Both the position numbers and the translations under genes were made by a program. A stretch of DNA of 64,000 nucleotides from Saprospiraceae bacterium (GTDB taxonomy: Bacteria; Bacteroidota; Bacteroidia; Chitinophagales; Saprospiraceae): assembly GCA_041741155.1 (NCBI GenBank), contig JBGSKO010000116.1:29103-93102 (forward strand), in the 5' to 3' direction. The notes under the pieces were generated by a model. That model was given only the letters and a program-made list of their open reading frames with translations, was not told where the DNA came from and did no database searches. Shown in pieces: positions 3,045-59,402 of the stretch (its first letter is position 1; every line of letters begins with the position of its first letter).

Positions 3045-5456
3045 TCATAACCGCACCTTCATCAACTTCGCCAGCCGCTCGAAAACGGCCTTCCACTCGT
3101 CGTTCCAGAACTCCCAAAGTTCTTTCCGGTGCCCTTTCGTGACCAGGTAGAAAATATTTTGGCTGCGCCAGATATCGGGCACAAGCTGCATTTCCTGCAT
3201 GATTTCCAGCACGTCGGCCAGCCATTGCAAACGAGACAGCGAGGAGGTATCCTGCTGGATCTGTTTGATTTCCCGGTGGATGCGCTGGCCGGCGGCGTGG
3301 CGCACAGCTTCTTCGTCGGCGAGTTTGACTTTCCAGCTTTTCAGGTCGTCGGCTACACGGCGCAGGATCTGGATGTTGGGCGTTTGGCCGTTTCTGAAAA
3401 AATGCAGCAAGTCGTCGTTCAGCACGTATGAGGCGATGTTGCGCCAGGTATCGGGCAGGGGCAGGCCGGCTTCCTGGAGGCCGGTCATGAGCTGGTAGTT
3501 GTCGTTGAAAACGTTGCGAAAATTAGCCTCCGCGAGCAGCAGGCTGTTGGCGGTAATGGCGCGGATGATCTTGATTTTTTCGTCGGCAAAGAGTGTAGCC
3601 AGGGTGAACTTGTGCGGCCCGAAGTGCTCCTGCTGGATGCCGATGACCTCGCCGAGGTTGGCTTTTCGGAATGCGTCGGCTACGCGCAGGTGCACCTCGT
3701 CGTAGGTGGTGCGGTTCAACGTACCGCTGATGTTGCCGATGATGTGCTGCTGGCCGAGGTACAGCGCCGAAAAACTGTACGTATGCTCGGCATGCGTGAG
3801 GCGCGAGCGGATGCGCAGGCGGCCGATCGCGAGGCGCGGAGTGCCGGCCTCGATGCGCTCGAATGCTTCTACTTTGACGGTATAGTTGAACAGATCAAGT
3901 TGTGCCGGGTCGTCTTCGAACAGCGAGGCTACGGCAAAATGGGCCGCTACGCGCTCGAGGTCCACGCGGGCGGGCAGCACGTTTTGCAGGTAGCTGGCGG
4001 CGCCGTCGGCGTACTTGTTGCTGGGCGCGCTGCGCAGGCGTTTCTCAAATCCCGCGTGCAGCTCCAGTCCGCAGGAGTCCTGGGCATGGTCCATGGAGCG
4101 CAGGGCATACTGGAGAATCTGGTTGGTTTCGATGCCCGATATTTCATCGAAAAACCAGCCGCAACTGGTGTACATGAGTACGGCGTAGCGCTGCATTTCG
4201 AGCAGGCGCAGGGCGGTCACTTCTTCGAGTTTGCTGAGTTCGCGGCGGGCGTGTTTCTCAAAAAACGCGCGCACAGCCTCGTCGGAGCGGTTCAGCATGG
4301 CCTCGATGTAGTCGTTTCGAGCTTTCCAGGCGTCTTTGAAAAACCGGCCGGCCTCTTTTTCGTACGCGGGGGCGAGTTGGTCGCGCAGCCAGTCGAGCGC
4401 TGCGCGCAGGGGTTTGCGCCAGCGCTGATGCCAGCCGGGATTGCCGCCGGTGTTGCACCCGCAGTCGCTGCGCCAGCGCTCCACTCCGTGCACGCAGCTC
4501 CAGGAGGAGTCTTCGTGGATTTGCACTTCGTATTCCGGCGGAAACAGTTCGAGAAACTGGCCGTAATTGGTCAGGGTTGCGAGGTTGTTGTCCTCAATAT
4601 GGGTGAGGGCGGAAGCGAGGGCCATTTCGCCGAAGCGGTGGTGGTGGCCGTAGCTCTCGCCGTCGGTGGCGATGTGGGCGAGTTGGGGGGCGTCGGAGTC
4701 GTCGAGGATGCGGAGCAGGCGCTCGGCGAACAGCTGCCCGTTGTTGAGCAGGCCGTTGAAGGCAACCTCCTGCGCCAGTCTGCCGTGGTAAAAATACAGG
4801 GCAATGCGGCGTCCGCTGGGCAGCTGGCACCAGTACGGGTGGCGGGTATCTATGGAATCGGCGTCCACCGGTTTCCATGCGGTGTCGCCCGTTTTGCGCA
4901 CGGCCGCAGCCTGTCGGGGCGCCAGCACGGTGTACTGGAGGCCGTGTGCGGCCAGCACTTCGAGGGTTTCGGTATTTACGGCCGTTTCTGCCAGCCAGAT
5001 GCCCTCCGGGTAGCGGCCGAACCGGTGTTCAAAATCGCGCACCCCCCAATAGACCTGGGTTACTTTGTCGCGGTAATTGGCCAGCGGCAGGATGAGGTGG
5101 CTGTGCACTTGTGCCAGCGCGTTGCCGTGGCCGCCGTAGCGTTCCCGGCTGCGGTGGTCGGCCTGAATGACCAGCTCGTACGCTTCCGGGTCGTTGACCT
5201 CCAGCCAGGTAAGCAGGGTGGGGCCGAGGTTGTAGGAAATGCGGTTGTAGTTGTTTTTGATCTTGATGATCCAGCCTTCCCGATCGAGGATGCGGGCCGC
5301 CGCATTGGGGGCGTAGCATTCGAAGTTGATGCGCTCGTTCCAGTCGTGGTAGGGGCGGGCGCCCTCTTGTTGTTCCACTACTTCCAGCCAGGCGTTTTCG
5401 CGTGGAGGCTGGTAAAAGTGGCCGTGGACGCAGACGTATTTTTTCTTGTCGGACAT
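3045..5456 (-). CDS. glycoside hydrolase family 57 protein (alpha-glucan-active, with DUF3536-type C-terminal extension)
   Basis: 803-aa ORF. The N-terminal YVCVHGHFYQPPRENAW and HDWNERINFECYAPNA blocks are characteristic of GH57 enzymes. Confidence 0.9.
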   Translation of the reverse strand: MSDKKKYVCVHGHFYQPPRENAWLEVVEQQEGARPYHDWNERINFECYAPNAAARILDREGWIIKIKNNYNRISYNLGPTLLTWLEVNDPEAYELVIQADHRSRERYGGHGNALAQVHSHLILPLANYRDKVTQVYWGVRDFEHRFGRYPEGIWLAETAVNTETLEVLAAHGLQYTVLAPRQAAAVRKTGDTAWKPVDADSIDTRHPYWCQLPSGRRIALYFYHGRLAQEVAFNGLLNNGQLFAERLLRILDDSDAPQLAHIATDGESYGHHHRFGEMALASALTHIEDNNLATLTNYGQFLELFPPEYEVQIHEDSSWSCVHGVERWRSDCGCNTGGNPGWHQRWRKPLRAALDWLRDQLAPAYEKEAGRFFKDAWKARNDYIEAMLNRSDEAVRAFFEKHARRELSKLEEVTALRLLEMQRYAVLMYTSCGWFFDEISGIETNQILQYALRSMDHAQDSCGLELHAGFEKRLRSAPSNKYADGAASYLQNVLPARVDLERVAAHFAVASLFEDDPAQLDLFNYTVKVEAFERIEAGTPRLAIGRLRIRSRLTHAEHTYSFSALYLGQQHIIGNISGTLNRTTYDEVHLRVADAFRKANLGEVIGIQQEHFGPHKFTLATLFADEKIKIIRAITANSLLLAEANFRNVFNDNYQLMTGLQEAGLPLPDTWRNIASYVLNDDLLHFFRNGQTPNIQILRRVADDLKSWKVKLADEEAVRHAAGQRIHREIKQIQQDTSSLSRLQWLADVLEIMQEMQLVPDIWRSQNIFYLVTKGHRKELWEFWNDEWKAVFERLAKLMKVRL

Positions 5457-43021: not shown

Positions 43022-43257
43022 AATCGTGTGTTTTTGTATTTGAATAAGCAGTCGCAAAGGTGCAACAAGTGCTTTCCTGCTTTTATAAAATTCAATGAAC
43101 ACCGCAGATTCACCCATAAACACCCGCTTTATCTCATAAACCCAATTTCTTGCAAAAATCAGCCGGACATTGAGCCGATCCCGGGGTTGAAAGGCAACAC
43201 ACCGGTGTTGGTTGAGAATAATTGGGCAGATGCAAGACGTTTGGCACCTTTGCAACT

Positions 43258-44322
43258 ATGCATTTACCGCGTCGAAATACCTGGTTACAAATTCTATTCT
43301 GGGGTGCCCTGTGGGTACTGGTGCCGGTGGCCCTCGCCGGCAACTGGGAAAACACCGAGCGGCTCGTCGTGCGGAGCGCCGTAGTGCTCACAGGCATCGC
43401 CCTCGTCGTGTGGGCTAATGTGGAAATTTTGCTCCCCAGACTTTATTTTAACAAAAAACAGGTCGCTTACATCCTGGCGGGACTGGCGCTTCTGGTGGGC
43501 ATTGTTTTGCTGGTGGACTGGGATGCGGCGCCCTGGGCCGAACATTTTACCCGGCCACGCACCAATGACAGTACCGGCCGCGGCGGCAATCCACATAACA
43601 ATCCGGGGTACCGCAGCATGAAATATATCGGTATGGCCATGCCTTATTTCACGGCATTGATCGGTAGCGCCCTGTTTGAAGTGGCCAGTTTTGCCAACCG
43701 CAAGGAGCGCGAGGCCACGGAGTTTCGCAGCGAAAAACTGGAGGCTGAACTAAAGTTTCTCAAATCCCAAATCAACCCGCACTTCCTGTTCAACGCCCTG
43801 AACAACATTTATACCCTGACGGTCATCAAGTCTGATCAGGCGCCCGACAACCTGCTCAAACTATCCGGTATGCTGCGCTATATGTTGTACGACTGCAAAG
43901 CCGACCGTGTACCACTGGGCAAAGAAATTGAATACTTGCGGCACTTCATTGATCTGAACCTGCTCAAAGACAGCCGGGGACTCAATGTGACGGTAAGCCT
44001 TGATGAATCGCGGCCGGCGCTGTCCATCGCTCCAATGCTTCTGATTCCTTTCGTGGAAAACGCATTCAAACACAGCAAAATTGAGGATCGCGCACACGGC
44101 TGGATCCGCATCGAATTGCAAACTGCCGCCGGTCATATTCAATTTACTGTGGAAAACAGCGTGCCAGAAACCGCCCACACCAAGGACCAATCCGGCGGCA
44201 TCGGCCTGAAAAACGTGCGCCGCCAACTCGAACTCCTCTACCCCGACCAACACGAACTAACCATTGAACCCGGACCAGATACTTTCCGCGTCCGACTGAA
44301 ATTGTTGGTTGAGAACGGTTGA
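43258..44322 (+). CDS. LytS/YehU-type sensor histidine kinase
   Basis: N-terminal membrane helices. The QINPHFLFNALNNIY block is the His_kinase (PF06580-type) H-box. A C-terminal ATPase-like GGIGLKNV block is present. Confidence 0.85.
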   Translation: MHLPRRNTWLQILFWGALWVLVPVALAGNWENTERLVVRSAVVLTGIALVVWANVEILLPRLYFNKKQVAYILAGLALLVGIVLLVDWDAAPWAEHFTRPRTNDSTGRGGNPHNNPGYRSMKYIGMAMPYFTALIGSALFEVASFANRKEREATEFRSEKLEAELKFLKSQINPHFLFNALNNIYTLTVIKSDQAPDNLLKLSGMLRYMLYDCKADRVPLGKEIEYLRHFIDLNLLKDSRGLNVTVSLDESRPALSIAPMLLIPFVENAFKHSKIEDRAHGWIRIELQTAAGHIQFTVENSVPETAHTKDQSGGIGLKNVRRQLELLYPDQHELTIEPGPDTFRVRLKLLVENG

Positions 44323-44468
44323 GAAAAGTTGAGAGGGTTGAGACGGTTGAGTTGAGAGCCCGGCTGCTGCTTAAGACTGTTCAGAAAGCTCTGAACTTTC
44401 CCAACATCCCTCCTCAACCCTCTCAACTTTTCTCAACCTTTCTCAACTTTTCTCAACCTTTCTCAACC
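44308..44468. repeat. GTTGAG/CTCAAC word-array hairpin between the kinase and regulator genes
   Basis: Six GTTGAG words lie at 44308-44356 and six CTCAAC words at 44413-44467. A 25-bp perfect complement links 44318-44342 and 44413-44437, extending to about 35 bp with 1 mismatch. The array starts inside the HK stop codon region and ends 9 nt before the RR ATG. Confidence 0.8.
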
Positions 44469-44476
44469 ATAACACA

Positions 44477-45190
44477 ATGAAACCCATCCGTTGCCTTGTC
44501 GTGGACGACGAAGAACTCGCCCGCACCCTGCTCCAGAACTACATTGGGCGGCTGCCCCATCTGGAACTCGTCGCTTCCTGCGCCAACCCGCTCGAAGCTA
44601 TGAGTGTACTCCAGCAGCAGCCCATTGACCTGTTGTTTCTCGATATCCAAATGCCCGAACTTACCGGAATTGAGTTTCTCCGCACCCTGACGTACAAGCC
44701 GCTGGTCATTTTCACCACAGCTTATACCGAATATGCGCTGGACGGTTATGCGCTGGATGTAACCGATTACCTGCTCAAACCTTTTTCCTTTGAACGGTTC
44801 CTGCAAGCCGTGAACAAAGCGGGAACACTCTTGCAGTCCCGTAACGGAAATACCCCGATCGTTCTGGAAACCGAAACGCCCGTCAAGGACTACATTTTGG
44901 TAAAAGCCGACCACAAGGTACATCGGCTCAAAATGGACGATATTCTCTACATCCAAAGTATGCGGGAATATGTAGCCTTCCACACGTCGTCCGGCCGTTT
45001 ACTTTCCCTCAATGCACTGAAAAACCTGGATGAAGAATTACCCCCGGAGCGATTTATCCGAATCCACAAATCCTATATTGTGGCGATAGACAAGATAGAT
45101 ACGCTCGAAGGAAACCTCGTACACGTAGGCAAGGAAAAACTGCCCATCGGAGCAAGCTACCGGGACGCGGTGGTGCGCAGGGTATTTTAA
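44477..45190 (+). CDS. LytR/AlgR-family response regulator (receiver + LytTR DNA-binding domain)
   Basis: The receiver domain has VVDDE...LLFLDIQMPELTGIEF. The C-terminal LytTR domain has ILYIQSMREYVAFHT...FIRIHKSYIV. Confidence 0.9.
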   Translation: MKPIRCLVVDDEELARTLLQNYIGRLPHLELVASCANPLEAMSVLQQQPIDLLFLDIQMPELTGIEFLRTLTYKPLVIFTTAYTEYALDGYALDVTDYLLKPFSFERFLQAVNKAGTLLQSRNGNTPIVLETETPVKDYILVKADHKVHRLKMDDILYIQSMREYVAFHTSSGRLLSLNALKNLDEELPPERFIRIHKSYIVAIDKIDTLEGNLVHVGKEKLPIGASYRDAVVRRVF

Positions 45191-47036: not shown

Positions 47037-48824
47037 ATGCAGCACCTCGCCTACCTCAACAAGTTTTTCTGGAAATATCGCTGGCGCTTCCTCCTCGGGA
47101 TCGTGTTTGTTGGCTTTGCCAACTGGTTCCGCGTGTGGCAACCCAAGATTATCCGGGAAGCACTGGACACGGTGGTCACGCAGGTGCAGCACTACAAAGA
47201 CACCGGCGGCATTTCGGCGCACCCGGAAGCATACGAGGAACTGGGCACACAGATTGCCTGGTTTGGAGGAGCAGTCATCGTGCTGGCTTTTCTGATGGGC
47301 CTGTTCATGTTTTTTATGCGCCAGACCATTATTGTGATGAGCCGACTCATTGAGTACGATATGCGCAAGGAACTCTTTGCGCACTACACAAAACTGGATC
47401 TGGCTTTTTTTAAACGAAACAGCACGGGCGACCTTATGTCGCGCATTTCGGAGGACGTGTCCAAGGTGCGGATGTTCCTTGGCCCTACCATTTTGTACGG
47501 CCTCGACCTGATTTTTTTGTTCGTACTGACCATCTCGTCCATGCTGCGCGTGAGTGTGCCGCTCACGCTGTGGTCGTTGTTACCACTGCCGTTTCTCAGT
47601 ATTTCGATTTACTGGGTGAGTAGTGTGATGAACAGGCGCAGCGAAAAAATCCAGCAGCAACTGGCCGTGCTCACCAGTACCGCCCAAGAGGTGTACAGCG
47701 GTATCCGGGTAGTGAAGAGTTATGCGCAAGAGGATGCTATGGGTCGCCATTTTGCCGAACAAAGCGAGGTGTATCGCCAAAAAACGCTGGGACTCACCCG
47801 GGTGGATGCCTTCTTTTACCCGCTCATGATACTCATGGTAGGCGCCAGCACCATCATCACCGTCTATGTCGGGGGGCTGCAAGTCGTGCAGGGCAATATA
47901 ACCACCGGCAACATCGCCGAGTTTGTGATTTATATTAATATGCTCACCTGGCCCGTGACCGCTATCGGCTGGATTGCCTCCCTGACCCAGCAAGCCGCTG
48001 CTTCGCAAAAACGCATCAACGAATTTCTCGCCACCAAACCGACGGTAGAAAACGACCACCACCTCCCGGCAACCACCTTCCGAGGCCATATTGTTTTTGA
48101 AAATGTAGGCTTCGTATATCCCGATACGGGTATCCGGGCGCTGGAAAATGTGTCGTTCGAAGTGTTGCCCGGTCAAAAAATGGCCATCGTGGGCCGCACA
48201 GGGTCGGGCAAGACAACCATTGCCGACCTGTTACTCCGTATGTACGATGTAACGGAAGGCCGTATCCTGCTCGACGGCAAGGATTTGCGCGAACATGACC
48301 TGTACCAGTTACGCCGCCGCATCGGGTATGTCCCGCAAGATGTGTTTCTGTTTTCGGACACCGTACAGGGAAATATTGCCTTCGGTAACGCTGACATTGC
48401 CCGCGAACAGGCCGAGTTTTTTGCCAAAAGCGCCGCAGTGCATAGTGACATCATGGGCTTGCCCAAAAACTACGAAACCCTGGTGGGCGAACGGGGTGTA
48501 ACCCTCTCCGGCGGTCAAAAACAACGCATCAGCATTGCGCGGGCATTTGCCAAACAGCCCGATATCGTGCTGCTCGACGACTGTTTATCTGCGGTGGACA
48601 CGCATACGGAAAGCCAGATTTTGGGCTACCTGAGCCAGGCACTGGCTGACAAAACAGCCATTATCATTACCCACCGGATTTACGGGATGCTGGAGTTTGA
48701 CAAAATTATTGTGCTGGAAGACCACCGGATTGCCGACTCCGGCACACACGAAGAACTGCTTGCCAAAGGCGGTTACTACGCCGAGTTGTTCGAAAAACAA
48801 TCCGCAGGGGGACTTGTCGAATAA
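47037..48824 (+). CDS. ABC exporter, fused permease/ATPase (MsbA-like); no N-terminal C39 peptidase domain
   Basis: Six N-terminal TM helices begin at the N-terminus. Walker A is GRTGSGKTT, the signature is LSGGQKQRISIARA and Walker B is IVLLDD. Confidence 0.9.
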   Translation: MQHLAYLNKFFWKYRWRFLLGIVFVGFANWFRVWQPKIIREALDTVVTQVQHYKDTGGISAHPEAYEELGTQIAWFGGAVIVLAFLMGLFMFFMRQTIIVMSRLIEYDMRKELFAHYTKLDLAFFKRNSTGDLMSRISEDVSKVRMFLGPTILYGLDLIFLFVLTISSMLRVSVPLTLWSLLPLPFLSISIYWVSSVMNRRSEKIQQQLAVLTSTAQEVYSGIRVVKSYAQEDAMGRHFAEQSEVYRQKTLGLTRVDAFFYPLMILMVGASTIITVYVGGLQVVQGNITTGNIAEFVIYINMLTWPVTAIGWIASLTQQAAASQKRINEFLATKPTVENDHHLPATTFRGHIVFENVGFVYPDTGIRALENVSFEVLPGQKMAIVGRTGSGKTTIADLLLRMYDVTEGRILLDGKDLREHDLYQLRRRIGYVPQDVFLFSDTVQGNIAFGNADIAREQAEFFAKSAAVHSDIMGLPKNYETLVGERGVTLSGGQKQRISIARAFAKQPDIVLLDDCLSAVDTHTESQILGYLSQALADKTAIIITHRIYGMLEFDKIIVLEDHRIADSGTHEELLAKGGYYAELFEKQSAGGLVE

Positions 48825-48831
48825 ACGTCTG

Positions 48832-50469
48832 CTATTGCCCGTTGGGGCGGAGCGCTTGTATTGCCGGCTGGAGTCTGAGTACTTTCACATTCGCTCCGGC
48901 TTTTGCCGCGGATTTAATGGTTTGCAACGCCCTGGCTGTATCGCCCTTTTGCATTTGGGCATCCACGGCTATTTGTACGGCTTCCACATTTGTTGGATCA
49001 CGTCTCAAAACTTCTTTCGCCTGCGTTTCTGCGCTGGTTGCATCGCCCAGGCCAAGGTTTGCCTTCGCTGCTCCGATGCGGGCGTCAAGGTTGTTTTTGC
49101 TGGAAGCGACAATACGCTCCATTTTGTCGCGTCGCCGCTCAAGTGCCGAAGTACTGTCTTGCACCTGCCGTGCTTTATCCTCTATCCAGGTACTGTCCAG
49201 GTCGCCGTATTGTTTGGCTGTTTGAAGTTCCTGATTGGCTTTTTCCGGCTGACTACTGCCCAAAAACGCCTTGATGCGCGCCTCGCGCAAAGCCGGCTCC
49301 ACCGTTTTATTTGAAGGGGATACTGCCTCCAAATCGCGCGCTGCGGCCCGGTAATCCTTGAGCTGAAGCAGCAGGGCGCCGCGTTTGGTGTGTGCTGTGG
49401 CATTATCCGGGAAATGCTCCAGCACTTTATCATACTCGGCAATTGCCTTTTCGGGCTCGTTCTGCACAAAATAACGGTCGGCCATAATGAAACTGGTGGT
49501 CGTGTCCACCGGATGGGCCTCCGCGCCCGGATCATCGCTTTTGAGGGCAGCAAGGTCCGCGTCCATGGCTCGCAGTGCATTGGCAGCAATGGGCGATCGT
49601 TTGTAGTTGGCCAGTACCATGTACAACATCCGGCTCACGGCTTTTACGTCACTTGTCAGAGCGGCTTCCTCCGTTACAGAGAGCAGGCGGTTAATGGTCG
49701 TATCTCCGCCGAAGCGAACGCCGCCGCCATCGAGCAGGCGGTAGCGCACGTCAATGGTATAGCTGTTGTTTTCGCGTTTCCGGACTTTGCCCCAAACCAG
49801 CATTTGTGCGCTGCAATTGCGCGCTATGTCAACGGCTTGCGCGGAATTGGGGTAGTTTTGATCAATATCGTAGCGCTTGTGTACGTCTGCGATCGTCTTG
49901 GTACGTAATTCCGGTGTCTGATCAATCCAGTCATTCAGCTCATCCATGATGTCAATGGCCGGATTTTCGCCGCGCTGTGCCCCCATAAAAGGAAGAATCA
50001 TCACGCGCGTTTCAGCCTCTTCGCTAAACGAGGGGCAATCCTCGGACTGGTATAAAAATACAAACCACAACACAGCGGCGATGATCAATGCAGCTCCACC
50101 GCCAATGGCGTAGTAACGCCACACTTTGGTACGGCTTGGTTCGGACTCTTGCTCGAAGGAAACTTTTCCGGACTCCAGCAGTCGTACGATTTTGAGGGCA
50201 TTATCAGCCAGTTGATTGGTCGTACGGCGCGCCTCGTCTCCAGAGATCGTGCCTTTCAGATTCTGGGCCTTCAACTGATACAGATCGCCCTGGTTGACTC
50301 GGGCAATATTGGCCAATTCAGCGTATTCCTCCGAAGATTCCAATAGTATGACCAACTGGTCGTAGCCCTCCTCCAGATTACCCTGGCTGACGAGCTGTTT
50401 TATTTGAGCAAGCGCCTTTTTGATCTCCATGGTTTCGATTGATTTCGAATAATGCAATTGTCCTGCCAA
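48832..50469 (-). CDS. single-pass membrane protein: N-terminal cytoplasmic helical module, periplasmic domain + TPR repeats
   Basis: 545-aa ORF. The TM helix YYAIGGGAALIIAAVLWFVFLY lies around residue 120 and C-terminal TPR-like repeats follow. The start could instead be M14. Confidence 0.7.
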   Translation of the reverse strand: MAGQLHYSKSIETMEIKKALAQIKQLVSQGNLEEGYDQLVILLESSEEYAELANIARVNQGDLYQLKAQNLKGTISGDEARRTTNQLADNALKIVRLLESGKVSFEQESEPSRTKVWRYYAIGGGAALIIAAVLWFVFLYQSEDCPSFSEEAETRVMILPFMGAQRGENPAIDIMDELNDWIDQTPELRTKTIADVHKRYDIDQNYPNSAQAVDIARNCSAQMLVWGKVRKRENNSYTIDVRYRLLDGGGVRFGGDTTINRLLSVTEEAALTSDVKAVSRMLYMVLANYKRSPIAANALRAMDADLAALKSDDPGAEAHPVDTTTSFIMADRYFVQNEPEKAIAEYDKVLEHFPDNATAHTKRGALLLQLKDYRAAARDLEAVSPSNKTVEPALREARIKAFLGSSQPEKANQELQTAKQYGDLDSTWIEDKARQVQDSTSALERRRDKMERIVASSKNNLDARIGAAKANLGLGDATSAETQAKEVLRRDPTNVEAVQIAVDAQMQKGDTARALQTIKSAAKAGANVKVLRLQPAIQALRPNGQ

Positions 50470-52401: not shown

Positions 52402-52441
52402 AAAACAAAAAAACGCCGAGCGAGTCGTTCCTCGCCCGGCG
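52402..52441 (-). terminator. rho-independent terminator (minus strand)
   Basis: The stem 52414-52424 / 52431-52441 pairs at 10/11 positions and is followed on the minus strand by TTTTTTTTGTTTTG. It lies about 125 nt downstream of the LytTR gene stop. Confidence 0.6.
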
Positions 52442-52564
52442 CCAAACCAAAACCCTAATTGCTTATTTGTTTGGGTACTACACGGGTGTGTATGCTGAAT
52501 TCGAAATCATTAGTAGTATGTGCAACAACTTAACAACTCATCACTTATCGCTCATAGTTCATCA

Positions 52565-53041
52565 CTATTCCGAGTGATCGAAATACTGCGCCAAGGCTTC
52601 CAGGAAGATATCTTTCTGACCGGCAGAAACAGTAAGCGTTGCGCTGTTTTGGAGTACAACATGTCCCCCTTTTCCTTTCACATATTTTTTGATGTGCCGC
52701 AAATGGATCGTGTGTGAGCGGTGGATGCGCACAAATGCCGAGACCGGCAGCATGAGTTCCACCTCGCGCAGCGTGCGGCACACCAGGATTTGCCGGCCAT
52801 CCAGAAAATGCAGCACCGTGTAATTACCGCTCGCTTCGAGGTACGCGATATGCTTGACCTTCTCAAAACACAGGCCGTCCATCGTGGGCAAAACTACCTT
52901 GCTGGACTTCCCCGGGTCGTATGGTTGCGTACGACCCGGGGCTGGCGTCCGGTAATGGTCGGTGGTTAATGGCAGCGCGCGGGCACTGCGCACGGGTTCG
53001 GAGAATTCGGCAGCGGTCGGGTACGGTAAAGCGGTCATCAT
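52565..53041 (-). CDS. stand-alone LytTR DNA-binding protein (no receiver domain)
   Basis: The start is taken at MMTALPYP. A Pro-rich linker of about 50 aa precedes the LytTR domain (VKHIAYLEASGNYTVLHFLDGRQILVCRTLREVELML...FVRIHRSHTIHLRHI). Confidence 0.8.
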   Translation of the reverse strand: MMTALPYPTAAEFSEPVRSARALPLTTDHYRTPAPGRTQPYDPGKSSKVVLPTMDGLCFEKVKHIAYLEASGNYTVLHFLDGRQILVCRTLREVELMLPVSAFVRIHRSHTIHLRHIKKYVKGKGGHVVLQNSATLTVSAGQKDIFLEALAQYFDHSE

Positions 53042-53170
53042 AGCAGTGCAATTTGAAATAAATGATGGGACAAAAGTATCGGCACGTCCAACCGTGACCA
53101 ACCCAAGTTTGGCGGATAAGTCAGGTTTCAAAGGCTTCTTTTGCATTTGGCCGGCCGGCAAAAAACCGGC

Positions 53171-53200
53171 ACTTTTGTCCAATCAAAAACAACTTTTGCC
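53171..53200 (+). promoter_or_regulatory. candidate LytTR operator: 9-bp direct repeats with a 12-bp spacer
   Basis: ACTTTTGTC (53171-53179), spacer caatcaaaaaca, then ACTTTTGCC (53192-53200), ending 44 bp upstream of the ATG at 53244. A third exact ACTTTTGTC lies inverted at 53069-53077, 28 bp upstream of the LytTR gene ATG. Confidence 0.45.
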
Positions 53201-53243
53201 GATCCGCCGTCGGCATTCGGGGTATCAGGCACCAAACCCAAAC

Positions 53244-54788
53244 ATGTCCAAGACACCTTCCGACAAACTCTTTCGCCTCATTCGCGGGCTCACGCCTGTG
53301 GAGAAGCGGTATTTTCATGTTTTTGTGGGCGGCAAAGTCGGACAGACCAGTAAGTATGTGCAATTGTTTGATGCCATTTCGGAGGTGGACTCCTTCGACG
53401 ACGAAGCGTTGCGCCGGAAAATCTACCAGAACAATCCGGTGGAAAGCAAGAAATTCTCGGAGCTTAAGGCATATCTGTATGACCTTATCCTGAAGAGTTT
53501 GCAGGCCTTTGATGAGCAGCATTCCGTAGATTTTCGGATAAACCACCAGTTACAAAGTGTGGCTGTTCTGTTCAAACGCGGGCATTACGACGCCTGTCAG
53601 GAATTACTCCGCAAAGCCGCCAAGACGGCACGCCACTACGAATGTTTTACTCATCTGCTGGAGATTGTACGCTGGGAAAAACACCTCGCGTACACCCGCA
53701 TGGATGTAGATTTTTTACACAAGCAATTTGATCAGTTGCAATTCACCGAAAAACGCGCAATGGAGCAATTGCACAATGTGGCCCAGTATCGCAACCTCTT
53801 TTTCCAGGTCTATACCACCATCAAGCGCGATGCCCTGCACCGCGGCGAGGAGCGTATGGAGCGCCTGCAAAATATTGTACAACACGACCTGCTCCGCGAC
53901 CTCGAACACGCACAATCGCACACCGCGCGGGTACTGTACTACCGCACGCTCAACCTGTACTTTTATGCCGCATCCGAACGCGAGCAGTTTTACGACACCG
54001 GCCTAAAAATGATTGAGCTTCTGGAGTCGCAACCCCACTTTTTGACAGAAAACCTGGCCGATTACATTGCTGCACTCAGTAATTTTATCCTCTCCTGCGG
54101 TCTGCTGGAGCGCTATGACGAAGTGCGCATCGCACTGGATAAACTACAGAAAATCAAACCATTAACTGCGGACGACCGTTTAAAAATTCACCGGCAATAC
54201 TATACCAACAAGTTTGTCCTGTGCATTTTTACCGGTGATTTTGAAGAAGGACGCCGGGAAATGGATCGTTGCCAATCGGAGGCCGGCCGGCTCGATCCGC
54301 ACGACTACGAGACGGCCAGTTTTTACTTTCAGTATTGTTGTATTTGTTTCGGCTGCGGTGACTACAACGGGGCGCTCGGCTACCTGAACGAGTGGCTCAA
54401 CCAACCGCGCACCGTGGAGCGCGAAGACCTGCAAAGCCTCGCCCGAATCCTTGCACTCATCATCCATTTTGAAATGGGAAACACCCTTTTGATTGAATCC
54501 CTGATGCGCTCGGCAACACGATTTTTACAAAAGAAAAACCGCCTCTACGATCTGGAGCGGCGGTTCTTTCATTTTATATCCGAACTGATGCGCGTGCCCA
54601 CGGAGCGGGAGCGGCAACATGCATTTCAAAAAATGCGCGACGACCTCGCGCAACTGTCTGATTGGCCGGGTGCCCGGGCGCTATTGCAAACGTTTGACCT
54701 GGACGCCTGGCTGGATGCCAAAATCAACAACCGGGCCTTTGCTGATTCCGTGAAAACCAAATGGGATCAAAAGAGACCGTTAACCTAA
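53244..54788 (+). CDS. 514-aa all-helical (TPR-like) hypothetical protein
   Basis: The start is taken at MSKTPSDKLFRLIRGLTPVEKRYFHVF. The ORF is long, uninterrupted and helix-rich. It has no signal peptide, TM segment or catalytic motif. Confidence 0.7.
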   Translation: MSKTPSDKLFRLIRGLTPVEKRYFHVFVGGKVGQTSKYVQLFDAISEVDSFDDEALRRKIYQNNPVESKKFSELKAYLYDLILKSLQAFDEQHSVDFRINHQLQSVAVLFKRGHYDACQELLRKAAKTARHYECFTHLLEIVRWEKHLAYTRMDVDFLHKQFDQLQFTEKRAMEQLHNVAQYRNLFFQVYTTIKRDALHRGEERMERLQNIVQHDLLRDLEHAQSHTARVLYYRTLNLYFYAASEREQFYDTGLKMIELLESQPHFLTENLADYIAALSNFILSCGLLERYDEVRIALDKLQKIKPLTADDRLKIHRQYYTNKFVLCIFTGDFEEGRREMDRCQSEAGRLDPHDYETASFYFQYCCICFGCGDYNGALGYLNEWLNQPRTVEREDLQSLARILALIIHFEMGNTLLIESLMRSATRFLQKKNRLYDLERRFFHFISELMRVPTERERQHAFQKMRDDLAQLSDWPGARALLQTFDLDAWLDAKINNRAFADSVKTKWDQKRPLT

Positions 54789-54994
54789 AAGATGCTGGTC
54801 TTGTCACCGGGACGCGTGATTGCCTCGCTCTCATCCGAGCGCGTATCTACGGAAGTCCAGCGGGTACGGTAGGTGAAGCGACGGCCGCGAATGATGTAGA
54901 AACCACCCTTAATGTGGTTCATTTCAGTTTCGTCCAGCGTGGTGACGAAGCTCTTGATCTTGAGATCGGTAAGTGAAAGTTTAGATTTTGCCAT
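54785..54994 (-). CDS. 69-aa peptide with a double-glycine (bacteriocin/RiPP-type) leader
   Basis: MAKSKLSLTDLKIKSFVTTLDETEMNHIKGG | FYIIRGRRFTYRTRWTSVDTRSDESEAITRPGDKTSIF. The leader resembles Bacteroidota GG-type natural-product precursors. Codon usage is GC3-rich like neighbouring genes. The stop overlaps the convergent 514-aa gene stop by 4 nt. Confidence 0.55.
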   Translation of the reverse strand: MAKSKLSLTDLKIKSFVTTLDETEMNHIKGGFYIIRGRRFTYRTRWTSVDTRSDESEAITRPGDKTSIF

Positions 54995-55163
54995 AAGATA
55001 CAGAAGTTTGAATTGAGCAGAATGAAGATTAACAGTGCTAATGTAACCGAAATATAGACACCCTGTTCGGAGGCGCACTTACCAGTTTTTTGGAAAAGTC
55101 AGGTTTCAGAAGGTTGATTTTTTGAGCGTGATCGAAAAGATGGATGCGATTACGCGCAGAAAA

Positions 55164-55628
55164 TTACAGATTTTGGAAAACCAATTCCGGCTCAAAGCCT
55201 GCGCGGATGAGTGCTGCGGCGATCTTGGCTCGGGCATTGGGGTCACTGCGGTACTGCCTGCGTTTTTTTTCCAAAATATCCTGCAGTACGGTAAGGTACT
55301 CCGTTTCGTCAATGGTATCAAGCGCCTGTACGATCAGATCAGACGCTATGGCACGCTGCCGCAGTTCCAGCCGGATGCGCACACGCCCCCAGTGGTTTAC
55401 CCGAAACTTGCCGCCGGCAAAAGCGTGGGCGAAACGCTCCTCGTTCACAAAACCCTCGCCCATCAGCACCTGCCAAATTTGCTCGGCGGTTTCGCCTTCC
55501 AGTCCTAACTCGGCCATTTTGCGGTGTACCTCTTGCGGACAACGCTCCCGGTAGGCGCAGTAGTTTTCCATCTTGGCCAATGCCTCATCCGTGGTAAGGG
55601 GCTTGGCCGGTTGTTTTTGAAATGCCAT
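55164..55628 (-). CDS. recX: regulatory protein RecX
   Basis: 154 aa. The N-terminal ...ALAKMENYCAYRERCPQEV... is followed by repeated three-helix modules typical of RecX. Confidence 0.75.
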   Translation of the reverse strand: MAFQKQPAKPLTTDEALAKMENYCAYRERCPQEVHRKMAELGLEGETAEQIWQVLMGEGFVNEERFAHAFAGGKFRVNHWGRVRIRLELRQRAIASDLIVQALDTIDETEYLTVLQDILEKKRRQYRSDPNARAKIAAALIRAGFEPELVFQNL

Positions 55629-55718: not shown

Positions 55719-58700
55719 TTACCGTTGCACCACGACCAAACGCCGAACCACAGCTTCCCGGGTTCGGATGAGCACCGAGTACATACCCGGTGGAAGGCGA
55801 TCACAAGCCAGCATCACGTCAGGCATAGCGCGTCCATAGTGCTCCAGCACCGTCCGCCCTGTAGCATCAAGGAGAAATACTTGCACCTCGGGCTGATCCG
55901 GGCCGAGGTAACGCAGATACAGCTGCCCGCATGTCGGGTTTGGGTAAAGGACCCATTTGTTGTCCTTTGAAATATCCGGGGCCGAAACGCCAGTGTCCAT
56001 CACGGGCACCACCTGTGCGTTGGTGCAGCCATTGGAGCCGGTCACAATCACCGTGTAATCTCCCGCCGTCAGGCCGTTTATATTTTCCAGATTGGAAATA
56101 AACTGTCCGTTGAAAAACCACTCCACCGTGTACGCCCCCGAATGGGAAACTGCAACAGAAATAGAACCAAGCCCCTGCCCAAAAGTGTCATGCACAACTT
56201 GAAGCACACCGATTTGTGGTATCTCTACGTCCTGCTGCACTGTGATGGTGACCGTACTCGTGCAGCCGTTCGCCGGGTTGACCACCTCCAGGGTATAGAT
56301 GCCAGGCAGGGTAACCTCCGGGTTGAGCAGGTTGGAGAAAAAACCATTGGGACCACTCCAGGCATACACCAGGCCGGGCATATTGGCGGTGGCTTGTAGC
56401 ACAATGGAGGGATTGGCACAAGTCAGTTTTCCCGACGATGTAATCAGCACAAGTGGCATTTGCTGGTCTATGTACACGGTAGCCGTAGCCACAGTGGAAC
56501 ATCCGTTACCGGGATTTGTAACGGCAACGGAGTAAATACCAGCCTCGTTTACGACAGGGTTTTGCTCCATAGAGATAAAGCCGCCCGGCCCAGACCAGGC
56601 AAAAATGGCGTTTGGCGTTACTGTTTCTGCTTGTAAAACAACACCGGGCTGGTTGCAGCGCAACGTATCGTCTGCTACGCTGACACTGGGCGCATTGCTA
56701 TCCTGATAAATCTGAACGGTCGCTGTATTGGTGCAGCCATTTGGCGCCGTGGCCACCACCATATAGCAAAACCCGACAGGATTTTCCACACAAATACACT
56801 CCGACATGGGAATATCCACTTCGCAAGTGATCGTTGTGGTCTGGTTGTAACAATTAATGGTATCGGCAGAAACAGTGATGATCGGTATTTGAAAATCAGC
56901 GACAACCGTCATTTCGGCGGTTGTCGTGCAGCCGTTGGCTCCTGTAACGGTCAGCAGAAAAACACCGGGGCTGTCCACGATCGGGTTGGGGCCCGGAACA
57001 ATGATGCCCGGCCCGGACCAGCTGCAAGTGCCTTGCGCGAATGGAGGGCACGGCAACACCAGATCAGGGTTGGTGCAGTTGATGACGGCATTGGCCGGGA
57101 TGGAAATAGCTGGTGTGACCAGATCGGCCAGTACCAGTGCAGTGGTCTGGGCCGTACAACCTGTTGCCGGATCGGTTACTACAAGGATGTAGGCGCCAGG
57201 CTGATCTACAACCGGATCTTCCTCGCTGGAGAAAAACCCGCCTGGCCCCGTCCAGACAAACGACAAGCCTGCCGGAGTGGCGTTGGCGTCCAATTGCACC
57301 ATAGGCTGGGCACAAGTAATGATTCCGTCTTGAACGGCCACCTGTGGAGGCGTCCCGCCAAATTGAACGGTAATGGTATCGGACGCTTCGCAGGTTTTCC
57401 CGCCGGCCATTGAGGTAGCTACCAAAATGTATGTCCCCGAACTGGAAACAGTTGCCGAGTTGCCCGTGGCAATGGTATCCCCGTCCAGCATTTTCCAGAT
57501 TTTGGCACCCGGAGACGGGACGGCGTTCAATACAAGCGGCGGTTCGGTACAAAGCGGGTGCGGGATCGGTTCAATTTGTGCCAGCGGTTCGAGTACAGCT
57601 ACTATGGGCAAAAAAACGGTGGAATCACATCCCAGATAGGATTCACAAACTTTACTGTGGTTGCCCACATCGCCGAATGCCTCTCCACAGATAACGATGG
57701 AATCGCCGGCACACAAGATTTGTGCAGCGTAGAAAAATCGTATCGGCGCCCGGATATTCACTTGCTGGCAAACAACACTATCGCAGCCTAAATAACTGGT
57801 GTAGGTGAAGCAGTAGGTTCCCGGAACCGGGCATTCTTCCCCCCAAGGAGTATAGTACGGGGCATCTTCGGCGCAGATGGTGACCGGGGGCAGGTTGGTG
57901 ACCGGGATGGGCGTTACGGTTATTTGCTTACACCTCAGTGTGCCGATATAGCAGGAGTTGAGTGGTTGGACACAAACCTGACCTGAATTTGTGCCGAAGG
58001 TAATTTGAGCAAAATTGCTGCCGGCGCCGACCAATGTCGCCGGAGCAGGAAGGCCATTTATTAAACTACCAGGTGGAGCAGTCCAAGTGTATGCACCCGC
58101 TCCAGCTACAGTTAGTGTAGAATAATCAAATGTGCCGCCCGGACAAATGGCGGAAGGACCAAAGATTGGGCCGGTGATCCCTATCGGATTGGGAACTGCC
58201 GCACCAGGCGGAACTGCTGACAGTTGAAAATCGCACTGATCGCCGGCGTATCCATCAATCAACAGGAAGTATGTGGTGCCGGGTACCAATGATGCCTTGA
58301 TGGATACCGGTGTGTCGCCGTAGCCCTGACCGCCCTCGTTGCAGGCAATCGGGTCATAATCGTTACATGACGGGTACAGCGCAATCTGAATGCCATTTCC
58401 ATTCTCACAATTATACGGTGTTGCGGTAAACGTAGCAGACGCGGCACCTGCTACAAAGCCGATCCATTGCTCATTTTCGATGGTGCCACAAAACCCCGAG
58501 GGCGTTTGGCCGGTATAGCCGTAAGTAGAACCAGTGTATCCGTTGAAGTTGCACAACACGCAGGCGTCGTAACACAAGTCTGCGGGGAAATAATTGTCTT
58601 CCGGGCAAGGTGGCGGAAGAAATTCAGTTCCAATTGAAAAAAACAAACAAGATTCGGCGCCTTGCGAACAGGCGTTGATCGGCGTGACACAAAGACTACC

Positions 58701-59402
58701 GTTCTGACTACCAAGCGTCACGGTTACCTTGGTGCCTGCCGGCGCCGGGATGATCACGGGAGATGCCTGCCCATTGATCAGGATGTCGTTCGGCCCCGTC
58801 CAGCGGTAGGCCGTTGCCCCGGGAACAGCAGCCACCGAGTATTCCTGCACGCTGAACGGAGCGACTACCCACGGTCCTCCTATCGGTCCCGCTGAATCTA
58901 CCGGCGGCGGCGCCACAGCATCGGCCGGCCCGGTCGCTATCTGAAAGGAGCACAAATCCCCGTCATAACCATCTACCATCAGGTAATATGTCTCTCCCGG
59001 AATAACATTCGCCGCTATGTCTCGCGCTACGTTTCCATCGCCGGGTTGTCCGGCGGCGCAAGCAATCGGCGCATCCGAGCAATTCCGATACAGGGCAATT
59101 TCGATGCCGTCGCCTGTTTGGCAATTCGACGGCATCACACTGATGGCAATACCATCCGCTCCAGCCACAAATGCAAACCATTGGTTGTTTTCCACCGCAC
59201 CGCAAAAACCAGGTGCAGGGTTGGCCGTAAAACCATTTGTCTGCCCGATGCGCCCATTAAGGAAACAATGCAGGCACGCATCCGCACAGGCACTGGCGCC
59301 AGGCGTTTGGGCTGTCGTGCAAACGATGGGATTTTGACTCCAGAGAGAACCTGAGAAAAGGAGCAGGAAAAAGAGCGAAAGCAGGGGGTAATTTTTTTTC
59401 AT
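55719..59402 (-). CDS. 1227-aa secreted repeat protein (two Cys-rich N-terminal modules, PKD/Ig-like repeats, T9SS sorting domain)
   Basis: Signal peptide MKKNYPLLSLFFLLLFSGSLWSQ. A ~135-aa module is duplicated (C..AC..C...FCG..EN.QW..FVAG...DGY.GD.C.FQ). About 7 tandem repeats carry W(S/T)GPGGF.S...NP.V...G.Y...V...NGC. C-terminal LYPNPTCGQLYLRY...GMYSVLIRTREAVVRRLVVVQR. Confidence 0.85.
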   Translation of the reverse strand: MKKNYPLLSLFFLLLFSGSLWSQNPIVCTTAQTPGASACADACLHCFLNGRIGQTNGFTANPAPGFCGAVENNQWFAFVAGADGIAISVMPSNCQTGDGIEIALYRNCSDAPIACAAGQPGDGNVARDIAANVIPGETYYLMVDGYDGDLCSFQIATGPADAVAPPPVDSAGPIGGPWVVAPFSVQEYSVAAVPGATAYRWTGPNDILINGQASPVIIPAPAGTKVTVTLGSQNGSLCVTPINACSQGAESCLFFSIGTEFLPPPCPEDNYFPADLCYDACVLCNFNGYTGSTYGYTGQTPSGFCGTIENEQWIGFVAGAASATFTATPYNCENGNGIQIALYPSCNDYDPIACNEGGQGYGDTPVSIKASLVPGTTYFLLIDGYAGDQCDFQLSAVPPGAAVPNPIGITGPIFGPSAICPGGTFDYSTLTVAGAGAYTWTAPPGSLINGLPAPATLVGAGSNFAQITFGTNSGQVCVQPLNSCYIGTLRCKQITVTPIPVTNLPPVTICAEDAPYYTPWGEECPVPGTYCFTYTSYLGCDSVVCQQVNIRAPIRFFYAAQILCAGDSIVICGEAFGDVGNHSKVCESYLGCDSTVFLPIVAVLEPLAQIEPIPHPLCTEPPLVLNAVPSPGAKIWKMLDGDTIATGNSATVSSSGTYILVATSMAGGKTCEASDTITVQFGGTPPQVAVQDGIITCAQPMVQLDANATPAGLSFVWTGPGGFFSSEEDPVVDQPGAYILVVTDPATGCTAQTTALVLADLVTPAISIPANAVINCTNPDLVLPCPPFAQGTCSWSGPGIIVPGPNPIVDSPGVFLLTVTGANGCTTTAEMTVVADFQIPIITVSADTINCYNQTTTITCEVDIPMSECICVENPVGFCYMVVATAPNGCTNTATVQIYQDSNAPSVSVADDTLRCNQPGVVLQAETVTPNAIFAWSGPGGFISMEQNPVVNEAGIYSVAVTNPGNGCSTVATATVYIDQQMPLVLITSSGKLTCANPSIVLQATANMPGLVYAWSGPNGFFSNLLNPEVTLPGIYTLEVVNPANGCTSTVTITVQQDVEIPQIGVLQVVHDTFGQGLGSISVAVSHSGAYTVEWFFNGQFISNLENINGLTAGDYTVIVTGSNGCTNAQVVPVMDTGVSAPDISKDNKWVLYPNPTCGQLYLRYLGPDQPEVQVFLLDATGRTVLEHYGRAMPDVMLACDRLPPGMYSVLIRTREAVVRRLVVVQR

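Follow-up and report, generated by a model that had tools for sequence, protein, structure and literature searches.

A candidate peptide-linked regulatory module of Saprospiraceae: a RusR-like gene, a convergent double-glycine peptide gene and a shared promoter box

This report concerns three neighboring genes in a 64,000-nucleotide stretch of a Saprospiraceae contig (JBGSKO010000116.1), and the whole of this stretch will be called the window. The genes encode a LytTR DNA-binding protein without a receiver domain, a large helical protein that belongs to the superfamily of RusR (BT2802), and a small peptide with a double-glycine (GG) leader; together with a short box found in their promoters, they look like an undescribed peptide-linked regulatory circuit and not like a chance neighborhood. 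More than 100 species of Bacteroidota have the helical and peptide genes side by side, joined in this lineage by the LytTR gene, with the same conserved promoter box. On comparative evidence, drawn for the most part from metagenome-assembled genomes (MAGs), the module has at its core the box and the two convergent genes, for the RusR-like protein and for the GG peptide, while the LytTR gene is an accessory that is fixed in the window's clade. The ensemble is best described, from these comparisons, as a new combination of a paralogous branch of the RusR superfamily, a distinct family of GG peptides and, in the Saprospiraceae, a receiver-less LytTR protein. A search of the literature on LytTR, double-glycine, and RRNPP systems found no such module in Bacteroidetes or Saprospiraceae, in agreement with an earlier reading made from the letters alone (the sequence-only reading), which had held that no comparable circuit was described in Bacteroidota. 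The genes, with the two parts of the peptide, are these (aa, amino acids):

52565-53041, minus strand: gene for the receiver-less LytTR DNA-binding protein, 158 aa (Pfam LytTR, E 6e-14)
53244-54788, plus strand: gene for the 514-aa protein of the RusR (BT2802) superfamily (NF058569, E 3e-50; AlphaFold2 (AF2) model; Foldseek)
54785-54994, minus strand: gene for the 69-aa GG-leader peptide (NF038180 leader_pinensin; 363 homologous clusters)
54902-54994, minus strand: leader of the peptide, residues 1-31, ending in ...IKGG (from the sequence)
54788-54901, minus strand: predicted 38-aa core of the peptide, FYIIRGRRFTYRTRWTSVDTRSDESEAITRPGDKTSIF (the sequence after GG)

The NCBI gene calls give the same three proteins, with equal lengths, on the 101.5-kb contig, and as to the genes themselves the sequence-only reading was right. 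In the 158-aa protein, Pfam recognizes a LytTR domain (residues 58-150) and no other domain, so that the regulator indeed has no receiver, and the module contains no histidine kinase; among solved structures, the LytTR domain 3d6w is the nearest. When the orthologs are aligned, this domain is highly conserved, and the N-terminal ~50 aa are variable and Pro-rich, with short conserved motifs within the otherwise variable stretch. The 69-aa open reading frame (ORF), which overlaps the stop of the helical gene by 4 nt, also lies where it had been placed, and its leader reaches 45.6 bits against NF038180 leader_pinensin, above the cutoff of 24.

The linkage of the genes is best seen in a species scan, in which the helical protein served as the query against one genome per GTDB species. 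Relatives were found in 223 species, and the best 80 loci were kept, all from Saprospiraceae/Lewinellaceae-type MAGs with 48-84% identity to the window's helical protein. A LytTR ortholog lies divergently from the helical gene in 78 of the 80 loci, both exceptions being contig ends, and a peptide gene is present in 79 (78 detected by phmmer, and a divergent GG peptide in L086 recognized by eye), the gap being L054, whose contig stops at the helical gene. The proposal that these genes belong together had implied that they would co-occur elsewhere, and the triad is in fact kept in 78-79 of the 80 loci, with gaps at contig ends only. Clustering of all flanking ORFs gave the helical gene, the LytTR gene, and recX as the only recurrent neighbors, the last being adjacent in 50 of the 80 loci; three long contigs share the order recX, peptide gene, convergent helical gene, and divergent LytTR gene, and differ in their outer flanks. 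Because the triad stays while its flanks change, a functional link among the genes is highly probable. recX itself is a common upstream neighbor and not a constant part of the module:

55164-55628, minus strand: recX (Pfam RecX_HTH1/2/3)

The same clustering found no recurrent exporter, immunity gene, modification gene, membrane protein, or importer in the flanks of the 80 loci, which upholds the remark in the sequence-only reading that no modification enzyme, C39 exporter, or immunity gene is adjacent. Its further remark, that the ABC exporter at 47037 lacks a C39 domain, is also correct: this protein (47037-48824) has ABC_membrane and ABC_tran domains and no C39. None of the three proteins of the triad has a PADLOC match to a defense system, and no structured RNA was matched by Rfam across the whole window. 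In one locus (L049, 186-4132), the pair of LytTR and helical genes is duplicated in tandem, with the box upstream of each copy.

The second line of evidence comes from the promoters, which were analyzed by phylogenetic footprinting of two stretches, the intergenic region between the divergent genes and 220 nt upstream of the peptide gene. The elements discussed below are the following:

53114-53129, minus strand: box 1, GAAACCTGACTTATCC, between the divergent LytTR and helical promoters (67 of 72 regions; similarity extends over 53106-53142)
55092-55107, minus strand: box 2, GAAACCTGACTTTTCC, upstream of the peptide gene (71 of 78 regions; similarity extends over 55084-55120)
53071-53078, minus strand: -7 element TACTTTTG of the LytTR gene (at +46 to +48 from CCTGAC in 66 of 70 loci)
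55049-55056, minus strand: -7-like element TATATTTC of the peptide gene (TA.CTTT at +47 from CCTGAC in 55 of 75 loci)
53146-53177, plus strand: promoter of the helical gene, with the -33 element TTTG at 53146-53149, a 20-nt spacer, and the -7-like element CACTTTTG at 53170-53177
53192-53200, plus strand: ACTTTTGCC, the second 9-mer of a 9-12-9 repeat (found in no locus but the window's and that of its closest relative, L007)

The conserved box is 15 nt long and reads AGAAACCTGACTT(A/T)T, also written AGAAnnCTGACTT(A/T)T. As the footprint motif (A/G)GAAACCTGACTT(A/T)T, it occurs in 71 of 78 peptide upstream regions, the same number that contain its CTGACT, and in 67 of 72 divergent regions, with an orientation that is constant relative to both the peptide gene and the LytTR gene. 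The ~35-nt box that the sequence-only reading had noticed upstream of the two minus-strand genes is thus real: in the window, 53106-53142 and 55084-55120 are 76% identical over 37 nt, and they share the perfect 16-mer GAAACCTGACTTWTCC at 53114-53129(-) and 55092-55107(-), of which the 64-kb window holds no third perfect copy. The strict form of the box has ~120 matches in the 80 loci, and each of them falls on one of the two promoter positions; the rest of the 886 kb contains none.

The sigma-A -7 element of Bacteroidota is TAnnTTTG, and the conserved blocks downstream of the box in the LytTR and peptide promoters fit this type. In both, the distance from CCTGAC to the -7 element is 47 nt (46-48 across loci), box 2 matching box 1 in orientation and in this distance, and box 1 lies at about -60 relative to each of the divergent start sites. 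In the LytTR promoter, a TTG 20 nt upstream of the -7 element corresponds to the -33 element, and, because the -7 element falls inside a longer ORF that starts with TTG, the ATG at 53041 is supported as the start of the LytTR gene. No properly spaced -33 TTG is present in the peptide promoter, which suggests that this promoter is activator-dependent, while the helical promoter has the form TTTGG-N19/20-(G)ACA(C/A)TTTTG, conserved across loci. Taken together, this promoter architecture makes co-regulation of the genes through the box very likely. Between the box and the -7 element, many peptide promoters of one subclade (for example L009, L012, L014-L017) also carry a short, partially conserved palindrome of the type CC(C/T)(G/A)CTGGC(G/A)GG, which could be a second operator; the palindrome of the window, CGCCTCCGAACAGGGTG at 55058-55076, was scored as a hairpin.

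Footprinting was less kind to the LytTR operator that the sequence-only reading had described as a direct-repeat pair of 9-12-9 spacing with a third, inverted copy. The repeat is present in the sequence (ACTTTTGTC at 53171-53179, a 12-nt spacer, and ACTTTTGCC at 53192-53200, with the inverted copy at 53069-53077), but its first 9-mer overlaps the -7 element of the helical gene, the inverted copy consists mostly of the LytTR gene's -7 element, and the second direct copy, being unconserved beyond L007, is probably not functional as an operator half-site. The 9-12-9 operator was rejected on these grounds. A reading of the box itself (GAAAC...) as the promoter of an extracytoplasmic function (ECF) sigma factor was judged less likely, given the sigma-A-type -7 element at a fixed 47 nt downstream and the tandem boxes of locus L092, described below.

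Which of the parts are constant becomes apparent among more distant relatives. A metagenome scan with a 7-sequence alignment of distant members as the query added 80 further loci; at the head of this alignment stands P0267, a distant family representative whose own locus, L091, contains the full triad. The loci were divided into a "near" group with 35-42% identity to P0267 (n=29), on metagenome contigs without taxonomic assignment, and a "far" group with at most 30% identity (n=57), and the denominators that follow include only loci whose contig spans the region concerned. In 20 of 23 near loci and in 0 of 45 far ones, a box lies no more than 300 nt upstream of the helical gene, against a background of 3 matches of the degenerate box in 811 kb. 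The convergent GG-leader peptide, called with a leader hidden Markov model plus regular expressions, is present in 26 of 29 near loci and in 1 of 53 far loci, the latter being the false-positive rate in this control group. An adjacent divergent LytTR gene, in turn, was found in 12 of 23 near loci and in 0 of 45 far ones.

All near peptide promoters have AGAAnnCTGACTTWT ~95-130 nt before the ATG, and this includes the loci without LytTR (L088, L094, L098, L104-106, L108, and L115), in which the upstream neighbors are an MFS transporter, a hydrolase, or hpt, and no DNA-binding protein. One of them, L088, has a 67-aa GG-leader ORF that overlaps the helical stop by 4 nt and has an unrelated core, and it carries the variant box TCAGACTCCTG upstream of both the peptide and the helical gene; more generally, box variants are shared, or co-vary, between the helical and peptide promoters of LytTR-less loci. 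The peptide cores of the distant loci diverge, although most keep W-x-x-[VIE]-[DKE]-[TIS]-[RQ], and none has Cys. It is because the box, the helical gene, and the GG peptide persist without an adjacent LytTR gene that the core of the module is taken to be these three. The circuit of regulator, helical protein, and peptide that the sequence-only reading had drawn is partly right: the triad is fixed in the window's clade, and LytTR is not the constant partner across the more distant loci. Locus L092 has neither LytTR nor peptide gene, and it carries three tandem boxes, GAA(A/T)CCTGACT(T/A)AT, at 3790-3915, between the gene of the helical family and a divergent operon for a glycosyltransferase and an ECF sigma factor, so that in some lineages the box may control other outputs.

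These distributions bear on the simplest alternative, namely that the triad is inherited synteny only and that the box is a chance or generic promoter feature. recX is likewise syntenic in 50 of the 80 loci without an evident functional tie, but its case differs from that of the triad, which stays where flanks change. A box confined to two promoter positions in 886 kb, missing from all 45 peptide-less superfamily members, and with variants that co-vary between both promoters of one locus makes this alternative exceedingly improbable.

The sequence-only reading had called the helical protein large, all-helical, TPR-like, and of no known function; the structural part of this description stands, and the functional part does not, since the protein is a homologue of RusR/BT2802, an activator defined by genetics. 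Residues 1-501 align onto positions 1-500 of NF058569 ("BT2802 family ribose utilization protein") with E 3e-50, at a score of 171.5 bits against a curated cutoff of 550, and no Pfam family is matched. Because 171 bits lies far under the family cutoff, the 514-aa protein is, judged by its sequence, a full-length distant homologue in a paralogous subfamily, a member of the superfamily and not an ortholog. The AF2 model, built from a 37-sequence alignment, is all-helical, with a mean predicted local distance difference test (pLDDT) score of 85 and no transmembrane (TM) segments; four short N-terminal helices (residues 5-60), which form a conserved domain of ~60 aa, precede a solenoid that resembles tetratricopeptide repeats (TPR). 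Sequence search of the PDB returned no solved relatives, and Foldseek against the PDB gave only generic TPR proteins (Ski3, CNOT10, RapH, MalT domain III, and LGN) at E ~1e-3, RapH with E 1.6e-3, TMq 0.26, and a root-mean-square deviation of 14 Å. The window-clade proteins have seven invariant or nearly invariant Cys (C118, C285, C327, C343, C365, C368, and C371), three of which form the CxxCxxC motif C365/C368/C371, FQYCCICFGCGDY; in more distant family members they are replaced by Y, F, or A, and a clade-specific metal or redox site (Fe-S or Zn) is possible at this cluster.

The superfamily to which the protein belongs is large, comprising 8,229 clusters at 50% identity with E<=1e-3 in an exhaustive profile search, and 2,916 with E<=1e-30. 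Nearly all members are ~510 aa long, and eight representatives that were tested all match NF058569 over their full length, at 110-220 bits, which places RusR, on sequence grounds, as one branch of a large superfamily. The gene contexts of distant representatives vary and show no constant partner; some have no related genes nearby, and lie next to a type IX secretion system (T9SS) protein, GH65, or housekeeping genes. RusR itself regulates the ribose-utilization locus of Bacteroides thetaiotaomicron: a strain deleted for rusR does not grow on ribose, and its induction of the rus locus falls to ~10% (bioRxiv 10.1101/574913). Ribose-induced rus transcription requires RusR, which is not itself induced (bioRxiv 10.1101/574913; PMC12596196), and its authors regard it as a candidate regulator unrelated to known regulators of polysaccharide utilization loci (bioRxiv 10.1101/574913; PMC8121099; PMC12596196). 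Compared with RusR, the window's protein shares full-length homology, size, and all-helical architecture, and it differs in its score (171.5 bits vs 550) and in its context, which is a GG peptide with or without LytTR instead of ribokinases and SusC/D, none of which is encoded near the module in the window. It also differs from the rest of the superfamily examined, since its clade has an upstream box and 0 of 45 other members have one.

The question of which protein acts at the box has two serious answers. Since LytTR is not a constant partner, the likely box-binding factor shifts to the helical protein, which is the sole regulator always found with the box and which belongs to a superfamily without a constant DNA-binding partner; that it is the box factor, either by itself or as a partner that the binder needs, has in our estimate an even chance. 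The other answer, that LytTR is a box-binding, autoregulating activator of the HdrR/BrsR kind, seems to us distinctly unlikely. According to this alternative, the TPR protein would have no DNA-binding role and would modulate LytTR by contact, in the manner of Rap/ComA or HdrM and possibly through the variable LytTR N-tail, with its conserved short motifs, while the peptide would relieve or trigger this control. It draws on the fact that LytTR is the sole recognizable DNA-binding domain of the locus, that in the window's clade the LytTR gene is adjacent without exception and has a promoter with the box, as is the case for autoregulated LytTR regulators, that the N-terminal domain of the helical protein matches no DNA-binding fold, and that RapH is among the weak Foldseek matches. 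Against this, the box persists before the helical and peptide genes in the 11 of 23 near loci without an adjacent LytTR gene; it is a single asymmetric 15-mer, with no second repeat 21 nt away, the register typical of LytTR dimers; the 9-12-9 repeat is unconserved; and RusR, which works as an activator, is not known to have a LytTR partner (bioRxiv 10.1101/574913).

With the peptide as a single query, 52 close homologues are found, and a profile search finds 363 clusters, all of the same type. Among the models of GG-type precursors, NF038180 is matched above its cutoff, as given above, and TIGR04149 is not (20.1 vs 25). The leader ends in the canonical [IVL]-K-G-G, and the consensus after GG is x2-4-[VI][KR]GRRx[ST]Yx[TV]RWTx[VI]DTR, and the tail beyond it varies; in the window-clade loci, the RWTxVDTR motif is invariant and the core nearly so overall. 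Its N-terminal half is cationic and amphipathic (pI 11.7), and the tail is acidic; for the window's 38-aa core, the calculated monoisotopic mass is 4583.34 Da if it is unmodified. Across species, 2-4 synonymous codons occur at each kind of invariant position (Gly, Arg, Thr, and Asp), and pN/pS is ~0.33 in leader and core alike, with pS saturated at ~0.7. Because invariant residues vary synonymously and pN/pS is of this order, the comparison indicates that the ORF is a real gene under purifying selection, as the sequence-only reading required of it.

Many homologues (P0008, P0016, P0017, P0030, P0046, P0049, P0052, and others) bear the NCBI name "pinensin family lanthipeptide", and the leader indeed resembles those of the pinensin class I lanthipeptides (NF038180) and of TIGR04149. 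The likeness ends there: Cys is absent from the 38-aa core and from all ~100 homologous cores, no LanB/LanC, radical-SAM, or transporter genes lie nearby, and the conserved core has its own W-x-x-V-D-T-R motif. A precursor of a lanthipeptide, or of a ribosomally made, post-translationally modified peptide (RiPP) of the radical-SAM type, was rejected for these reasons, together with the TIGR04149 score below cutoff. With Cys-free cores and no lanthipeptide enzymes nearby, the label is, as far as the sequences tell, a leader-only over-annotation.

A wider alternative, which we hold to be rather unlikely, is that the peptide is not a signal but an exported effector, either an unmodified bacteriocin of class II type or a RiPP precursor with unlinked enzymes and transporter, whose production the RusR-like protein and LytTR would control in response to another cue, metabolic or stress-related. 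GG-leader peptides of Bacteroidota are typically antimicrobials or RiPP precursors, and the leader matches pinensin/TIGR04149-type models; the cationic, amphipathic half of the core with its acidic tail would suit such a role, conservation of the core is more easily reconciled with a conserved target or enzyme than with a pheromone that diversifies, the cue of RusR is believed to be a sugar derivative, and LytTR regulators classically control bacteriocins. On the other side, no immunity, transporter, or modification gene is linked in ~100 loci, the peptide gene is always single-copy, the lack of Cys excludes lanthionine or disulfide chemistry, and the pairing is housekeeping-like, one per genome. 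The 3' overlap, moreover, is kept over deep divergence while the core changes, and for this reason the two genes look like a cognate regulator-peptide pair.

This overlap is itself a recurrent trait. In 36 of 79 loci, the helical and peptide genes share part of their stop regions (in the window at 54785-54788), and the commonest convergent arrangement is the 4-nt overlap, found in 24 loci. As no terminator fits between the stops, full-length convergent transcripts must overlap, and one may speculate that they interfere by an antisense effect, by analogy with prgX/prgQ of pCF10. Such tight overlap, which suggests stoichiometric or antisense coupling, is also among the arguments for an altogether intracellular peptide: the 69-aa product would not be exported, its leader would be a helix that docks on the TPR protein, and inside the cell the product would be a co-regulator or anti-activator, with the RusR-like protein or LytTR as its target. 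No exporter is linked, leader and core are equally constrained (pN/pS 0.33 each), and TPR domains bind short helical or extended peptides, all of which would agree with this. We nevertheless regard it as improbable, since the leader lies above the curated cutoff of a model for GG-leader export and processing and ends in [IVL]-K-G-G, and since every GG leader that has been characterized is specific to peptidase-ABC export.

The mechanism that we prefer assembles these parts into a self-contained, autoregulated regulator-peptide module of Saprospiraceae-type Bacteroidota, with a peptide core that has the motif W-x-x-V/I-D/E-T/I-R and no Cys. The RusR-like protein would act at the box, directly or as the partner that the binder requires, and, with the box centered at about -60 from sigma-A-type promoters, it would activate three genes, those for itself, for LytTR, and for the peptide. 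The peptide would be cut after GG and exported by an unlinked peptidase-ABC transporter, and the peptide or its precursor would be the cognate ligand of the TPR domain, which would close a feedback loop; LytTR, itself driven by the box, would serve as the output regulator for further targets. As a full chain, we give this scheme somewhat less than an even chance, and one of its steps, the peptide as the signal of the helical protein, is proposed tentatively and appears to us more doubtful still.

Several points weigh against the scheme. The only recognizable DNA-binding domain of the locus is that of LytTR, and the N-terminal 68 aa of the helical protein, modeled separately by AF2 (pLDDT 80), had no Foldseek match in the PDB and no consistent weak Pfam matches. 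The LytTR of the LytTR-less relatives could be encoded elsewhere in their genomes. The ligand of RusR is thought to be a sugar derivative and not a peptide (bioRxiv 10.1101/574913). A C39 exporter, an importer, and a modification enzyme are all missing from the recurrent flank genes; the 38-aa peptide would have to cross two membranes each way; and the core is far longer than RRNPP signals and strongly conserved, not diversified into pherotypes.

The comparison with known systems is instructive in both directions. With the RRNPP family (Rap/Phr, NprR/NprX, PlcR/PapR, PrgX/cCF10, Rgg/SHP, ComR/XIP, and AimR/AimP), the module shares a cytoplasmic TPR protein beside a small peptide gene, a candidate autoregulatory operator before that gene, and convergent overlapping regulator and peptide genes, as in prgX/prgQ; Rap proteins, too, have no helix-turn-helix domain and act on a separate DNA-binding regulator. 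The propeptide, however, has a GG leader where those of RRNPP systems are of Sec type or leaderless, its core is ~38 aa long as opposed to a C-terminal signal of 5-10 aa, the hosts are diderm Bacteroidota and not Firmicutes, and no Opp importer is linked. No Pfam, NCBIfam, or PDB sequence match places the 514-aa protein in this family, and Foldseek gives generic TPR matches only. It would be a first cytoplasmic-receptor circuit for peptide signaling in Bacteroidota, with an RRNPP-like function of independent origin, if the TPR regulator sensed its own GG-derived peptide and the box provided positive feedback at three promoters; we consider this unlikely.

The ComCDE, BlpRH/BlpC, PlnABCD, and AgrA circuits offer another likeness, a GG-leader peptide gene beside a LytTR gene with a box before both. 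The exporter in ComCDE-type circuits can be unlinked as well, pneumococcal comCDE and comAB being apart. In contrast with these circuits, the module has no histidine kinase and no receiver, its box is a 15-mer and not a pair of 9-bp direct repeats 12 bp apart, and its LytTR is dispensable for the architecture of the locus in related lineages. The HdrRM and BrsRM systems of Streptococcus mutans resemble it in having a receiver-less, apparently autoregulated LytTR protein with a non-kinase partner and a link to GG peptides, but their partner is a co-transcribed membrane inhibitor, whereas here it is a soluble, divergently encoded TPR-like protein of 514 aa. The module differs, finally, from GG-leader loci with a dedicated exporter, as the flanks of the 80 loci hold no C39-peptidase ABC transporter.

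What the module offers is an easily testable candidate that is conserved at one per genome and consists of one box, two or three proteins, and one peptide, in a phylum for which peptide-based cell-cell signaling is essentially undescribed and in a family, the Saprospiraceae, that is abundant in activated sludge, lakes, and the sea. It is also a handle on a superfamily of >8,000 clusters (at 50% identity) of which one member has been studied genetically, with a candidate operator beside the gene. If the proposed mechanism is true, the members of this superfamily would be one-component TPR regulators of a new class, in which a novel N-terminal domain binds DNA and the ligands range from sugar phosphates to peptides. 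Several hundred "pinensin family lanthipeptide" entries, for their part, form a distinct family of Cys-free peptides with no lanthipeptide enzymes nearby.

Some further features of the window may be recorded here. Downstream of the LytTR gene, between it and the convergent meaB, lies a possible terminator:

52412-52443, minus strand: intrinsic-terminator-like hairpin with a T-run (13-pair stem with 9 G-C pairs, followed by TTTTTGTTTT)

A separate and ordinary pair, consisting of a LytS-type histidine kinase (PF06580) and then a response regulator with receiver and LytTR domains, is encoded ~8 kb away at 43222-45190 on the plus strand. On the minus strand, 48832-50469 encodes a 545-aa protein in which Effector-associated domain 11 (PF19964, E 9e-10) is N-terminal and TPRs are C-terminal, with an apparent TM segment as well; effector-associated domains are linked to conflict and signaling systems. 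Beyond recX, also on the minus strand, 55719-59402 encodes a secreted protein of 1227 aa with repeated Cys-rich modules and a T9SS C-terminal sorting domain, and relatives of this protein (PKD_6 + Por_Secre_tail) flank recX in several related loci.

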